In this document: positions 1,751 through 20,552 of the stretch, one piece after another
Numbering within the stretch: position 1 is the stretch's first letter
Layout of the letters: every line of letters begins with the position of its first letter
Virus genome (UHGV): UHGV-0138297
Length of the DNA: 23,481 bases
Origin: a virus
Direction: 5' to 3' (one strand)
Program-made: the position numbers and the translations under genes
Notes under the pieces: model-generated
Seen by the model: only the letters and a program-made list of their open reading frames with translations
What the model was told of the DNA's origin: nothing
Databases searched by the model: none

Positions 1751-3910
1751 TTACTCCTGTGCCATTCCGCTTAGCGATGCCACAATTCCAGCTCTTGCTA
1801 AACGCTGGAACTCTTCGTTTCCTAGTGCCTCGCGTATTGCTTTTACGGCGGCCTTATTTGCCATAAATCTGCGTTCCGCTGCCGCTAATGCTTCTTTGCT
1901 TCCGCCTGCTCTTACTGCTTTAGTGGCTTCCTGAACTGCTTTCTCTATCGCATACCGACCACTACGTGTGGTGGCAATTTTAGATACAGCGCCTTTTAAC
2001 CCAGCGCCAACTAAAGCACCTGCGGCAGCGCCTGCAATGCCTCCTCCAGCGCCACCAACAATGGCACCTGATGTTGAGTTGGCAATTGCATTTAACACTG
2101 TTGATGTGACGTTGGATAAACCAGCATCCAGATCGCGTAGTACATTGGCAGTTCTCCCTGTTCTTTCAATATACTGCTGAGGTTTCACTGCTGCTCTTGC
2201 AAGAGTGCCATACGCATCAGCAATTCTTCCAAGCTCTGAGGAATATCTGCTAATGGCTTTTACATTTTGTGGAGTGAGTATCTCTGCGATATGGTTAATT
2301 CCTGCTGCATCAGCTTTGCCACCACGTACACCATGCGAGATGGCATCCTGCAACATTGATGATATAGCAGGAACACGCTCTGATTCTGGCAGCGCGCGGA
2401 TCATAGAATGGAATCCAGCAGGACCATTAAGACCTTTAGCTGACGATGATTGAAGGGATTTTACTCCATTCGTAATCAGTGCATCTGTTGCCAAATCACG
2501 CCCGAAAACAGACTCTGCACTCTCTTGTGCTGATAACCTCGCTTTAGACAGATCATTAGCTTTTTGCCAGTCATCAAGAAATCCGCCGTTTTCCGCCATT
2601 GTGCGCATATCATCAGTAATTGCCCGGCGTATTTCCCCTGCTCTCCTTGCCGCATTTGCCTCTCCGCTACGCTTATATTTTTGCTCCGCATCAGCAAATT
2701 TCGCTCTCCATGCTTTCATGCCATCAAATGTTACTCCACCTTGATTGTTTGCCTGAACAAACTGTTTCATTTCAGGAGTAAGCGGTATGCCGGCAGATCG
2801 CTCTGCCTGAATAACGGCATTACCATTTAGCATTCTTGCTTTTTGATTTGGCATTGTTGACCGTACGTCATCCCATGCCGCGCGCTCGGCATCCTTCATC
2901 TGATCAAGATTTTGAAGAATCCTTTGTTTTATAGCCGCACTTTTTTCTGATGCCGTTCCAGATGCGGCCCCAAATTCATCAAGGTTTCGACTTAACTTTG
3001 ATGATATTTCGTTAAATGCTGCCTGATGGGCGTCCTGAACAATTCCTGGTGTTGATGCCAATGCGCCTTCGGCTTGTGCAATTCCACGACTTCCAGATCG
3101 CATTCCTGGTGTTAATGCGTTTATATCAATTCCAGCAGACTCAGCCGCTTTTGCTACATCTTCGGACACATTAGCGGCCTGACTGGCAATTGACTGACGC
3201 CCAGCACCTGACTTTGCCATCCTGGAAACATCATTAGCAGAATTCAGTGCTGCACCACCAAGAGCCTGTGAAACCCTTGGCGCAATAACGCGCCCGACAC
3301 CTGAAAGAACGCCTTGAGCACCAATATTGATACCACCGTTAATGGCAGCATTTTGTGCAAAGTCGCCCTCCTGATTTGCAGCATCAGCAAGAGAACCTGC
3401 AATCATGTTTCCTGCGGAACCGATATCTCCAGCGAGCTTTGCTGTCGCTCCAGCAGCTTTTGCCGCTGTGCCAATTGGCAGGAGATACCCACCAAATGTT
3501 TCACCGGCTTGCGCCCAACGGTCTGTCGGTCGATCGACAGGGCGATAAACATCATCCAAAACCTTGGGGCCACCAAGCCCATGGCTGATTGCATTAATCA
3601 GACTTGCGCCACCCTGCAATACGTCAAATGGTATGTTTACCAGACCACGACCAGCCTGTTCTGCAATTTGCCCTGCACTTTGACCACCTGTGAGCCAATC
3701 GCCAGCTTGTTGCATCAATGATGGTTCTTCTTTCTGCTGCTGATGCGGAGGGTATGCTGCATAAAACTGATCTCTTGCTTCAGCCCATTTGTCACCAGCC
3801 TTAGGGGCAACAACCTCATCAAAATATTGCGCTTGAGCCTGTGCTTTCTGTTCTTCAGTTAACGCCTGATACTGTGGAGAGGCGATAACATCTTTCCATG
3901 CTTTAGCCAT
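1751..3910 (-). CDS. Ejection (DNA-transfer) protein, P22 gp16-like
   Basis: 719-aa ORF in the P22 gene order 14-7-20-16, last of the ejection-protein trio. It has Gly/Ala-rich tracts. Its start overlaps the gp20-like stop. Confidence 0.85.
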
Positions 3911-18152: not shown

Positions 18153-18598
18153 GACAGGAACAGAGCTCGCTCTGCCTTGCGGCGATTCGTGAGCCCCGGC
18201 ATCACCTTTCCGCCTGATTTATTCCAGCGCAGAAATTCATCTGCCGCGCCTTTTATATCGCCAGCATTCAGCTTTTTCAGCAGTGTAGATGTGGAAAGAG
18301 CACGCGACCCAACGTTGTAAGCGAACGACACCAGTGCGTCGAACTGGCCTTGTGTCAGCTTCACCCTGACAACTTTCAGCACGTCATTCTCATAACCAAC
18401 AAGCCCTGTTTTCAGAAGCCTGTCAGCGGTTTGCTGGTCGATAGTCATACCGCGCTTTACTGGCTTTCCGTCAACCGGATGGGTCCAGCCATAGCCGATG
18501 GTCCACGGCGCATCTCCCGTTCCGGGGTCTGGGTAAGCAGTCAGCCGACAACCTTCAAATTTTTTTATCAGAGCAATTCCGTCAGGACTGGTTTGCAT
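18149..18598 (-). CDS. Phage lysozyme (T4/P22 gp19-type, GH24)
   Basis: From the internal Met ([24 protein letters not shown]...) the protein matches the P22 gp19 pattern and ends ...[18 protein letters not shown] lies 6 nt upstream. The ATG sits inside the holin 3' end. The ORF-track start at 18670 is an upstream extension. Confidence 0.9.
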
Positions 18599-18899
18599 CG
18601 TCAACTCCCGCCTTTTTTGCTGCAAGTTTTTTAATAAGATTGCCGATCGAATCGGTGCCGATGTATCCAATAAAGACGCTGGCTATGTAGGCGAGGTTGC
18701 TGCTCAGGCCGATAAAGTCCAGAAGGTCACGAACGAACCAGGCAATCATCGCGCACATCAGCGCATCAATTAGCGTTTTTGTTACCGCGCCGCCGTTATA
18801 GCGACCACGCAGATACGCCATGATAAAAGCCAGCATTGCACCAATACCCTGCTCCTTGGCGGCAAGTAGCGCAGCGATGAAATCTTGTTTGTATGGCAA
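18582..18899 (-). CDS. S: Class I holin, lambda S-like, probably TTG-initiated
   Basis: Sequence from ...[31 protein letters not shown]... to the C-terminus is near-identical to lambda S as I recall it. I place the start at TTG 18899 (SD GGAG 6 nt upstream, 10 nt after the HNH stop), which gives 105 aa. The alternative ATG at 18935 overlaps the HNH gene by 26 nt and adds a 12-residue Arg/Lys-rich extension. Confidence 0.85.
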
Positions 18900-18909
18900 T
18901 TTTTTCTCC

Positions 18910-19410
18910 CTACGCCTGGCACGCGAATTGACCATGATATTTCCCCCTAAACTCTGAGATTACCAACTCAGCAAGTTCGAGATCATCGAAGTAACCCAAC
19001 CAGATCTGCTTCTTATTTCTACTTCCGCAAACTCTCCATTTCCCATTCTTAACATCAAGCCTGACGCCCTTTATGGGATTCTTTCCTCCGGATGGTTTGC
19101 GTCTGTTATATTGATTTTCTGATTTGGTCGATAATCTGAGGTTTTTAATGCCATTGTTTAATGGGTTTCTATCTAAATGATCCACGTCCATTTCTGGCAT
19201 GCATCCATATACATACAACCAAGCCAGCCGATGCTCTTTATAGATTTTCCCATCTATACGTATTTGCCTGTAACCAGATCCATTAATCGTTCCAGCTCTT
19301 GAGCCAACTTTAATTCTGCGATTGCTGGATTTAACCCAAGTAAAAACCCCTGAAACAGGCTCATAGTGCATAAGGCTTTTCAGGACTTGCTGAGTGATTA
19401 CCATCTTCAT
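18910..19410 (-). CDS. HNH homing endonuclease with AP2-like DNA-binding domain
   Basis: 166 aa with an HNH motif region ([46 protein letters not shown]) and an AP2-like C-terminal segment ([28 protein letters not shown]). AT-rich relative to its neighbours. Start context is GAGGAGAGAGACT-ATGAAGATG. Confidence 0.88.
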
Positions 19411-19502
19411 AGTCTCTCTCCTCGCAATAGAAGCGGGAGCTGTGCGTTGTAGAGAAGCGCCTCACCCATTGCGTTTAAGGGGTAAGTGTTTAGCTGTATG
19501 GA

Positions 19503-19527
19503 TGGTCGCGAATAAAAAAGCCCACGG
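19503..19527 (-). terminator. Rho-independent terminator in the late leader, upstream of the HNH gene
   Basis: On the minus strand: GCCCAC-CGCGCC-GUGGGC followed by UUUUUUAUU. Confidence 0.6.
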
Positions 19528-19792
19528 CGCGGTGGGCAATAGAGGGTAGTGCGTTGAGCTTTTGCTCTTATGGTCCTGGTAGGTATTTGGTGTGTGGTGA
19601 CCGGTGCTGTGTTTTCCGGCATGTAAATGAACTACCCGTCGTCGCCATGGTGAGCCTTTACCTCACCATCTAGCTGATAAGTTAGCGCATCAGCCTGCGC
19701 ATTCACCACAACGATAATTGCACTGCGCCTGTTTCGGTTAGCGTAACGGGATTAACCGGTCACCCCAATGCAATTATCTGTTGTGCAGATAC

Positions 19793-19821
19793 AAAAAAGC
19801 CCCGAGCTATTAACTCAGGGC
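19793..19821 (-). terminator. tR'-like terminator ending a short (~57 nt) late leader RNA
   Basis: On the minus strand: hairpin GCCCUGAG-UUAAUAG-CUCGGGGC followed by UUUUUUGU. The flanking sequence (...TTTTTTGTATCTGCACAACAG...) resembles the sequence after lambda tR' as I recall it. Confidence 0.7.
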
Positions 19822-19857
19822 TTTATTTAACGAGTGCATTTATCCATCGTTGAGTCA

Positions 19858-19886
19858 AATTTACCCAACTTTATTCAAAAAGTCAA
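19858..19886 (-). promoter_or_regulatory. Late promoter pR' (lambda type), presumably containing the Q binding element
   Basis: Minus strand reads TTGACT-17 nt-TAAATT, then TGACTCA and ACGATGG; TTGACT is at plus 19881-19886 and TAAATT at 19858-19863. This is almost the same as lambda pR' as I remember it. It lies directly downstream of Q, with the predicted +1 near 19850. Confidence 0.8.
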
Positions 19887-19928
19887 TATCATGCCGTTAA
19901 TATGTTGCCATCCGTGGAAATCATGCTG

Positions 19929-20552
19929 CTAACGTGTGACCGCATTCAAAATGTTGTCTGCGATTGACTCTTCTTTGTGGCATTGCACCACCAGAGCGTC
20001 ATACAGTGGCTTAACAGTGCGTGACCAGGTGGGTTGAGTAAGGTTTGGGATTAGCATCGTTACAGCGCGATATGCGGCGCTTGCTGGCATTCTTGAATAG
20101 CCGACACCTTTGCATCTTCCGCATTCTTTCTCAACAACTCTCCCCCACAGCTCTGTTTTTGATATATCAACCGCACGGCCTGTACCGTGGCAATCTCTGC
20201 ATCTTGCCCCCGGCGTCGCGGCACTACGGCAATAATCCGCATAAGCGAATGTTGCGAGCACTTGCAGTACCTTTGCCTTAGTATTTCCTTCGAGCTTTGC
20301 CACACCACGGTATTTCCCCGATACCTTGTGTGCAAATTGCATCAGATAGTTGATAGCCTTTTGTTTGTCGTTCTGGCTGAGTTCGTGCTTACCGCAGAAT
20401 GCAGCCATACCGAATCCGGCTTGTGATTGCGCCATCCCCATAGCAGCCATCACATCAGTACCGGAAAGAGAGTCAGAAGCCGTGGCCCGTGGTGAGTCGC
20501 TCATCATCGGGCTTTTTGGCGAATGAAATTTAGCTACGCTTTCGAGTCTCAT
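19929..20552 (-). CDS. Q: Late antiterminator Q (lambda type)
   Basis: 207 aa, essentially matching lambda Q as I recall it (MRLESVAKFHSPKSPMMSDSPRATASDS...), including the zinc-binding Cys cluster CRDCHGTGR...CGRCKG. Confidence 0.93.
   Translation of the reverse strand: MRLESVAKFHSPKSPMMSDSPRATASDSLSGTDVMAAMGMAQSQAGFGMAAFCGKHELSQNDKQKAINYLMQFAHKVSGKYRGVAKLEGNTKAKVLQVLATFAYADYCRSAATPGARCRDCHGTGRAVDISKTELWGRVVEKECGRCKGVGYSRMPASAAYRAVTMLIPNLTQPTWSRTVKPLYDALVVQCHKEESIADNILNAVTR

Follow-up and report, generated by a model that had tools for sequence, protein, structure and literature searches.

A candidate homing endonuclease gene seated in the dual-start codons of a lambda-type holin gene

The dual-start motif of the lambda holin gene S is the textbook holin/antiholin lysis timer. 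In UHGV virus genome UHGV-0138297, the whole 23,481-nt stretch of which is called the window here, a preliminary description made from the letters alone had noted an AT-rich HNH/AP2 endonuclease gene between the terminator tR' and a lambda-type holin gene. GC content (41.7% in the HNH gene and 41.6% in the 505-bp insertion described below, vs 50-53% in the holin, endolysin and Q genes), the HNH_3 match and the AP2 domain of a structural model all agree with that assignment. The HNH open reading frame (ORF) begins ATG-AAG-ATG (19410-19402), which is the start of lambda S, as the description stated (lambda reads ATGAAGATGCCAGAA), and the holin reading frame at 18905-18897 is AAA-AAA-TTG. How did the initiation codons of a holin come to head an endonuclease, and from which codon is the holin now made? 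We consider it highly probable (roughly 85%) that the gene is a free-standing HNH_3/AP2 homing endonuclease gene (HEG), one of a small lineage whose members lie where lambda-type holin genes begin, in lambdoid prophages of Enterobacteriaceae. Free-standing HNH homing endonucleases are a known kind of element, and this one would occupy a niche that is mechanistically interesting and previously undescribed; a literature search, in an incomplete library, returned no account of an endonuclease gene in the S dual-start motif.

Insert-free alleles, carriers and relatives of the cassette

The motif ATGAARATG is not improbable on its own, with 2 occurrences in the window vs 0.83 expected, and what gives it meaning is that its flanks are homologous to holin initiation regions. 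Over the 51 nt that end in ATGAAGATGG (19452-19402), the window shares 86.5% identity with the initiation region of the holin gene in Salmonella phage UPF_BP1, whose holin belongs to an unrelated family (90 aa, MKMDERY...), and this homology to the window ends directly past the third codon. IMG/VR contig L188 is identical to window 19491-19402 at 90 of 90 nt (ending ATGAAGATG) and continues directly into CCC TAC AAA CAA GAC of a lambda-type S. Together these two leaders show directly what had been proposed, that the HNH gene captured a holin initiation region.

L188 represents the empty site on the left, and phages Louie and Omnitron, both without the HNH gene, represent it on the right. Louie, a sequenced isolate from sewage-plant inflow on E. 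coli, is 99.75% identical to the window from 18902 downward, the sole difference in S being position 18899 (ATG to TTG), and its S DNA matches window 18879-18582 at 298 of 298 nt; for Omnitron S the identity from 18902 downward is ~93%. The two holins start ATG AAA ATG CCA TAC AAA (MKMPYKQDF), where the window has AAA AAA TTG CCA TAC AAA. The empty site reads GGAGGTGAGGCCTATGAAAATGCCATAC in the Louie type and GAGGAGAGAGACTATGAAGATGCCCTAC in the L188 type. Because L188 joins an identical leader directly to S, the HNH cassette can be delimited cleanly as 505 bp (19401-18897) inserted between codons 3 and 4 of S, the exact junction that the preliminary description had sought from an alignment to lambda-type S genes. 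Its position is ambiguous by 2 nt, as TG is present at both insertion ends. Homology of the AAA at 18902-18900 to Lys2 was considered and ruled out, since locus L015 has no homology past this TG, which puts the junction at the Met3 codon.

Relatives without the HNH gene do not share the window's holin N-terminus; a shared one would have spoken against any remodelling. Among IMG/VR contigs with the S 5' end TGCCATACAAACAAGATTTCATCGC, 55 of 58 have an intact ATG-AAR-ATG, and the other three (3/58) carry the HNH junction with TTG; Louie, Omnitron and these 55 contigs all read ATG-AAR-ATG-CCA. An IMG/VR search with GAGGAGAGAGACTATGAARATG, which spans the initiation region and Met-Lys-Met, returned 28 contigs (loci including L184-L210). 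Downstream of it lay the 90-aa MKMDERY holin in 12, a lambda-type S (MKMPYKQDF) in 10, a 113-aa MKMPNTPH holin in five and an HNH gene in one. The dual-start codons thus act as a general mosaic joint in holin exchange, with three unrelated holin types sharing one initiation region, and the common ATGAARATG boundary helps explain why mosaic joints are frequent at holin genes.

The assembly collection contains the exact HNH protein in 182 blocks, and 10 of these places were inspected. In all ten the gene lies directly before holin, endolysin and Rz genes. Early-right regions differ among these carriers, as do their Q genes (Antiterm, Phage_antitermQ or an unassigned 227-aa type) and terminases, which are of four types (Terminase_3, Terminase_6N, GpA and TerL). 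The HNH ORF is identical at 500-501 of 501 nt in the ten carriers, with the 42 nt upstream only 74-86% identical in four, and the 30 nt past the ORF are identical too in loci with diverged flanks. Holin identity to the window is 71.5% in L010, 95.3% in L009 and 97.7% in L013 and L014, which are two different prophages of one genome (GCA_902505335.1), both with the cassette. With an HNH gene that starts ATGAAAATG, L009 places the left edge of the invariant block inside the dual-start codons; at the right boundary, identity reaches only ~16-22 nt into S in all carriers. Because the cassette is identical while the holin flanks diverge, this pattern is the signature of a mobile element. Two hallmarks of a HEG were found, namely a presence/absence polymorphism at one precise site and an element that is more similar between carriers than its flanks are.

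Diverged homologues also lie directly before holin genes: P0002 (77% identity), P0003 (70%), P0004 (61%), P0005 (58%), P0007 (57%) and the chimeric P0008. A Q gene is immediately upstream in four of these six, and the holin that follows is Phage_holin_3_1 in five and Phage_holin_3_3 for P0005. The next homologue, P0011 (50%), sits in a nin region and is not holin-linked. The 5' ends of holin-linked homologues repeat this capture. Locus L015 has a Louie-type initiation region (GGAGGTGAGGCTTATGAAAATG) followed by an HNH gene starting MKM. The HNH proteins of L017 and L018 start MRMP and MKRMP, and the insert-free Erwinia phage EhrS_49 has a holin of the L018 type, TTG AAA AGA ATG CCA or (M)KRMPDKDPG; the leader in L119 can be recognised as that of the EhrS_49 holin.

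The 3' end of the HNH gene has one layout in 6 of 6 lineages: a stop codon (TAG, TGA or TAA), a Shine-Dalgarno (SD) sequence of the form GGAG, GGGGG or GGAGG, exactly 10 nt from stop to start, then TTG or GTG and a Pro codon. The restart codon is TTG in the window, L015, L017 and L119, GTG in L018 and L116, and never ATG. Predicted anti-SD pairing at the holin SD is -8.9 kcal/mol in the window vs -11.2 to -12.1 kcal/mol in the other lineages. A degenerate junction pattern, AARTAYCAYGG..TGYCA, found no new holin-linked lineage in IMG/VR.

Several details of these loci were seen along the way. In L119/L120 (P0005) the Phage_holin_3_3 holin (116 aa, LPYKSDPG...) follows the same arrangement of stop, SD, 10 nt and TTG, and in L119 a 1-nt insertion (ATGAAACGCTATG) has put the former Met1 out of frame. 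The chimeric HNH protein of L121 (P0008) is identical to the window protein in its C-terminal part, from ~residue 124, and strongly diverged in its N-terminal part, which suggests recombination inside the endonuclease gene; its start region also differs (ATGGTGCTTTCT). The HNH stop codon and first SD bases can pair with holin codons 2-3 in L015 (GUAGGG/CCCUAC) and L119 (GUAAGG/CCUUAC), with one mismatch in the window (18890-18913, GUAGGG/CCAUAC), and this pairing is missing in the GTG clade. The third base of the stop codon covaries with the third base of the Pro codon, in too few sequences to judge. L013 and L014 carry a second HNH_3 gene (3212-3721, 169 aa, 31% identical to the HNH protein studied here) between Q and the holin-linked HNH gene, which gives two endonuclease genes in tandem within the Q-S interval, and the nin region of L014 has a third HNH_3 gene, with NUMOD4.

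The locus and the start codon of the holin

The HNH, holin, Q, endolysin and Rz genes and the terminators all lie on the minus strand, in the following order:

20552-19929, minus: Q, lambda-type late antiterminator (Pfam Antiterm, E=1.2e-57)
19886-19858, minus: pR'-like late promoter, TTGACT-17-TAAATT, inside a block 97% identical to lambda
19824-19796, minus: tR' terminator, 13-bp stem then T-run (terminator scan)
19537-19520 (stem; T-run to ~19511), minus: second intrinsic terminator, GCCCAC-CGCGCC-GTGGGC then TTTTTTATT (terminator scan)
19452-19402, minus: holin-type initiation region now serving the HNH gene, a hairpin with the SD on its 3' arm (CUCCCGC..GCGAGGAG), then ATG-AAG-ATG
19410-18910, minus: HNH_3 and AP2 endonuclease ORF, 166 aa, MKM...ACQA, stop TAG 18912-18910 (ORF list, Pfam)
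19401-18897, minus: 505-bp insertion between S codon 3 (ATG) and codon 4 (CCA) (empty-site comparison)
18935-18933, minus: alternative holin start, an in-frame ATG that lies upstream within the HNH gene (ORF list)
18910-18906, minus: holin SD GGGAG, sharing the last base of the HNH stop codon (read in the sequence)
18899-18897, minus: TTG, most likely holin start, at the position of lambda S Met3 (alignment)
18899-18582, minus: holin, S105-equivalent form, 105 codons plus stop (Pfam Phage_holin_3_1)
18598-18149, minus: endolysin of the lysozyme family, its start overlapping the holin 3' end (Pfam Phage_lysozyme, E=6.4e-48)
18152-17685, minus: Rz-type spanin, completing the lysis cassette (ORF list; the equivalent gene in related loci matches Pfam Phage_lysis)

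The window from 20562 to 19829, covering Q and pR', is 97% identical at the nucleotide level to lambda 43875-44609, and window 19802-19766 at tR' matches lambda 44770-44806. The second terminator is 100% conserved in Citrobacter phage Omnitron, within a shared 80-nt segment (19590-19511). A promoter scan of 18500-20000 found no sigma-70-like site besides pR'. Because no further promoter-like site precedes the HNH gene, the HNH and lysis genes would be part of the Q-dependent late transcript, and with pR', tR' and the second terminator all upstream the earlier expectation of Q dependence held. The intrinsic terminator placed upstream of the HNH gene at 19503-19527 is real; its coordinates were ~10 nt off, and it is the second of two, tR' lying upstream of it.

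The slot between Q and S was correctly named as the genomic interval, and the comparison with loose cargo like stxAB did not hold, as the insertion is inside the S reading frame. Both occupy the interval past pR' and tR' and before the lysis cassette and depend on late transcription; unlike stxAB-type cargo, the window insertion lies within S coding sequence, has no promoter of its own that we could find and no obvious host or virulence function. An Stx-like cargo or moron was ruled out on two grounds: from the second terminator to the HNH gene no promoter-like site was found, and the insertion lies inside the S frame.

By sequence, the holin is a lambda-family class I holin (Pfam Phage_holin_3_1, E=5.6e-30; PHROG 126; 80% identical to lambda S), preceded as in lambda by Q, pR' and tR' of the lambda type. 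Insert-free alleles have Met1-Lys2-Met3, whereas the window holin has AAA-AAA-TTG and no two Met codons at its N-terminus; the dual-start codons, with their SD and hairpin, begin the endonuclease gene. The preliminary description was right that the holin had lost its dual-start N-terminus and placed the beginning of similarity to lambda S too far in, since it already begins at K-L-P-Y-K (lambda K2-M3-P4-E5-K6), which in DNA is 18898, equivalent to lambda 45193.

Two in-frame holin starts had been named, TTG 18899 and ATG 18935, and both are present as described, the ATG inside the HNH gene. TTG 18899 aligns with the Met3 ATG of Louie, Omnitron and lambda, and all 55 insert-free contigs have ATG there. 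ATG 18935 would give a 117-aa form that overlaps the HNH gene by 26 nt and has a 12-residue extension with a net charge of +5. It arises from the HNH codons Lys-Tyr-His-Gly (AAA TAT CAT GG) and has an equivalent in four of the six lineages, with CAC instead in L018 and L116; elsewhere the extension reads MAHSLVRRREEH (+1), MAHFRVKFEGDI (0) and MVISSARRKEDI (+1). Because the layout around the TTG is conserved in all lineages and the ATG and the charge of its extension are not, we favour TTG 18899, which is probably the main holin start. Its product would most likely be identical to the S105 form of Louie and the insert-free relatives, and the 117-aa form may also be made alongside.

According to a review (PMC6116005), S107's two additional positive charges suffice to keep the first transmembrane domain (TMD1) out of the membrane, and a phage making S105 only lyses 5-10 min early. 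As two charges already block TMD1, the +5 extension would be expected to act like an antiholin rather than a holin. One alternative, tentative and on balance doubtful, is that the insertion re-created a dual start, with ATG 18935 (a 117-aa antiholin-like protein) and TTG 18899 (the 105-aa holin) replacing the S107/S105 pair. The SDs of both starts are comparable, the +5 charge is a change of the kind known to retain TMD1 in the cytoplasm (PMC6116005), and the arrangement is invariant across the ten identical-cassette loci, where, however, an identical cassette offers zero variation for testing constraint. The ATG is not kept in the GTG clade, the charge of the extension is not conserved, and ribosomes translating the HNH gene may hinder initiation at an internal out-of-frame ATG.

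We regard it as unlikely, more so than a new dual start, that ATG 18935 is the sole or principal start of the holin, with the Arg/Lys-rich extension tolerated or cleaved and TTG 18899 not used. ATG is a stronger start codon than TTG, an SD-like AGGGGG lies 7 nt upstream of it (predicted at -9.3 kcal/mol vs -8.9 kcal/mol for the TTG), the ORF is open and ATG is found in 4/6 lineages; NCBI and other gene callers pick it. However, conserved HNH codons (R-G/E-K-Y-H-G) generate both the ATG and its SD as a side effect, the two lineages with CAC in place of ATG still have the stop-SD-GTG layout, and the net charge of the extension ranges from +5 to 0 between lineages. A +5 N-terminus should also block the N-out topology needed by S105 (PMC6116005), and a phage with the 117-aa form alone would be expected to lyse poorly. 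NCBI names the 117-aa ORF (e.g. EEW2243867.1) 'phage holin, lambda family', and such entries are probably over-extended N-terminally by 12 codons.

Whichever start is used, the balance of holin and antiholin should no longer be that of the insert-free relatives, because the S107 Met1 codon and its SD and hairpin now serve the HNH gene; an altered ratio, as the preliminary description had proposed, is a sound inference from the lost S107 start. The expected effects on lysis are opposed: loss of S107 should speed it up and a TTG start should slow holin accumulation, which leaves the net direction not predictable.

The endonuclease and its spread

The HNH protein matches Pfam HNH_3 (PF13392) at 54.5 bits (cut-off 24.8), AP2 at 25.0 bits, under the cut-off of 33.3, and PHROG 99, 'HNH endonuclease', at E=3.8e-63. 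In an alignment of 55 homologues D77, H78, N90, N99 and N102 are invariant. An AlphaFold (AF2) model built from this alignment has a mean pLDDT of 93.9; its best whole-chain PDB match is I-HmuI (1U3E; Foldseek E=6.7e-4, 159 aligned columns, 23% identity), and its C-terminal 55-57 residues superpose on the AP2/ERF domains of AtERF1 and TEM1 at 1.4-2.0 A with probability 1.00. A PDB search by sequence gave no match. By Pfam and by the model, the protein is thus an HNH_3/I-HmuI-like nuclease with an HNH motif and an AP2-type DNA-binding module, and with HNH_3 above its cut-off, the D/H/N residues invariant and the model matching I-HmuI and AP2, the enzyme looks intact. An intron- or intein-encoded HEG was ruled out: Rfam group I and group II intron models gave no match over 18500-20100 even at E<=1, the HNH reading frame ends at a stop codon of its own and a separate start codon is required to make the holin.

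The HNH gene as DNA (541 nt, distant mode) had no match in 50,697 phage records, and when 5,426 complete E. coli genomes were searched with 18850-19530 by megablast, this found no HNH gene and only a 54-nt holin match, in 17 genomes. By tblastn the protein matched 3,379 phage records, all below 60% identity; the best matches listed were <=49% identical and nearly all from virulent phages, and the phage-borne homologues carry the annotation HNH (homing) endonuclease. A scan of species-representative genomes with the HNH alignment gave 80 loci, the best at 47% identity, and the holin-linked clade was not among them. A JGI metagenome scan found one 99% copy, all others being <=47%, and an IMG/VR protein scan three near-identical copies only. 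NCBI lists the protein under Escherichia coli and Citrobacter ('MULTISPECIES: Enterobacteriaceae').

A rather improbable alternative to homing is an ordinary mosaic joint or moron, formed by illegitimate or short-homology recombination, in which homing is not, or no longer, active and Met-Lys-Met is incidental. This would fit the use of the ATGAARATG boundary as a general joint before three unrelated holin families and the statistically ordinary frequency of the 9-mer. Against it, the same position is held by HNH homologues down to 57% identity, with three classes of initiation region and two holin families, the cassette is 100% identical in diverged backgrounds, the catalytic residues are intact and no moron-type promoter or terminator of its own was found. 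A domesticated HNH protein serving the phage, for instance in packaging like HK97 gp74, is very improbable: the gene does lie within the late operon, and HNH proteins are needed for cos cleavage in some lambdoid or HK97-like phages, but this one is of another family (HNH_3 with AP2, I-HmuI-like, not PF01844), is not beside the terminase genes, which vary among carriers, coexists in L013 with that prophage's own PF01844 HNH next to the terminase, and is lacking from 95% of phages with the same S 5' end. A terminase-associated HNH was in fact ruled out by its different Pfam family, its place upstream of the lysis genes and the four terminase types among carriers.

We return to the free-standing HEG and to how it would work. 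The cassette fuses the endonuclease ORF in frame to holin Met1-Lys2-Met3, and because the holin SD and upstream hairpin are inherited by this fusion, the HNH gene would be expressed only within the Q-antiterminated late transcript. At its 3' end the cassette supplies a replacement holin initiation region, in which the HNH stop codon is followed by GGGAG and then, 10 nt from stop to start, by TTG. With the S107 antiholin start gone, lysis timing would rest on a weak start codon behind a good SD, possibly coupled to termination of HNH translation 10 nt upstream, and a 117-aa isoform from ATG 18935, with its extension expected to be antiholin-like, may arise as well. The enzyme would cut insert-free S alleles near the dual-start motif and spread through repair-mediated copying between co-resident or co-infecting lambdoid phages. 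The dual-start region may make a durable target, being short, functionally constrained and common to holin families and leader types, and an endonuclease gene inserted there would depend for its expression on the late transcript and on a weak ribosome-binding site, which may limit harm to the lysogen.

A bolder version of this mechanism is possible, and we hold it tentatively. The HEG lineage may have specialised on the holin dual-start motif and carry a co-evolved, portable restart, in which the holin dosage is set by a stop codon, a strong SD, a spacer fixed at 10 nt and an obligatorily weak start (TTG or GTG), possibly through coupling to HNH termination. The S107/S105 timer would then have been swapped for this one, to which the window's sublineage would add the 117-aa +5 antiholin-like isoform. 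If so, natural lambdoid populations would be polymorphic for two mechanistically different lysis clocks, one of them driven by a selfish element.

Several observations weigh against the account given here. Recombination in short conserved flanks, of the ordinary or the Red type, could have produced the sharp identity boundaries with no nuclease involved, and the HNH start of L116 does not look holin-derived. The six lineages are few and phylogenetically related, such that 'never ATG' rests on at most a few independent events. The equally good predicted SD of ATG 18935, and its annotation as the start by NCBI, mean that the 117-aa form could be the main or only holin product. Predicted folds around both initiation regions are no more stable than shuffles (z = 0.34 and -0.62); a hairpin does appear in the fold at the HNH initiation region, is not statistically distinctive, and because both folds match shuffled stability we make no structural claim. 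Finally, cleavage, homing and expression are putative steps throughout.

Comparison with known homing systems sets the cassette apart from each. Like I-HmuI, its best whole-chain structural match, the HNH protein has the HNH_3 motif D-H...N...N and is phage-borne. I-HmuI is encoded in a group I intron of a DNA polymerase gene, whereas the window HNH gene is free-standing with no intron found, has a C-terminal module of AP2 type rather than that of I-HmuI, and is 23% identical. The free-standing homing endonucleases of T-even phages (Seg and Mob) are of the GIY-YIG or other HNH types, mostly intergenic and with promoters of their own, and mobE splits nrdA in Aeromonas phage Aeh1. With these the cassette shares intron-less homing (as proposed here), a fixed site that is either occupied or empty, sharp ends to the identity, and a position at or inside conserved essential genes whose function is preserved. 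It differs in that the HEG is fused to the first three codons of the host gene, uses its ribosome-binding site and carries a replacement site, and in that the target is a regulatory dual-start motif, so that regulation would change and not catalysis.

The window holds a natural allele in which a putatively selfish endonuclease gene has taken over the dual-start motif, and the holin would start at a codon other than ATG, with S107 lost. Paired with insert-free alleles, it makes the fitness contribution of the antiholin directly testable, as well as whether a weak start codon or translational coupling can substitute for an antiholin, and whether a homing endonuclease gains from late-only expression, when phage genome copies are many.

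The late leader

A tRNA scan across the window returned zero genes. Between tR' and the second terminator the late leader holds an element of ~118 nt (19711-19594, minus strand; core hairpin 19681-19635). Its central 47 nt match positions 172-218 of the small-subunit ribosomal RNA (SSU rRNA) model RF02542 at 33-38 bits (E ~1e-8), under the gathering score, and its predicted fold has a 7-bp closing stem and three hairpins, with a minimum free energy of -41.3 kcal/mol and z = -1.8. A 90.8% identical copy is intergenic in virulent Jedunavirus phages (ZCEC13 and Klebsiella phage SBP). In Omnitron (L002), positions ~1470-1503, compared with window 19590-19620, show an apparent tRNA 3' end, GGTTCGAATCC...CCGCCA, judged by eye, which lies directly ahead of the 80-nt segment that is 100% common with the window.

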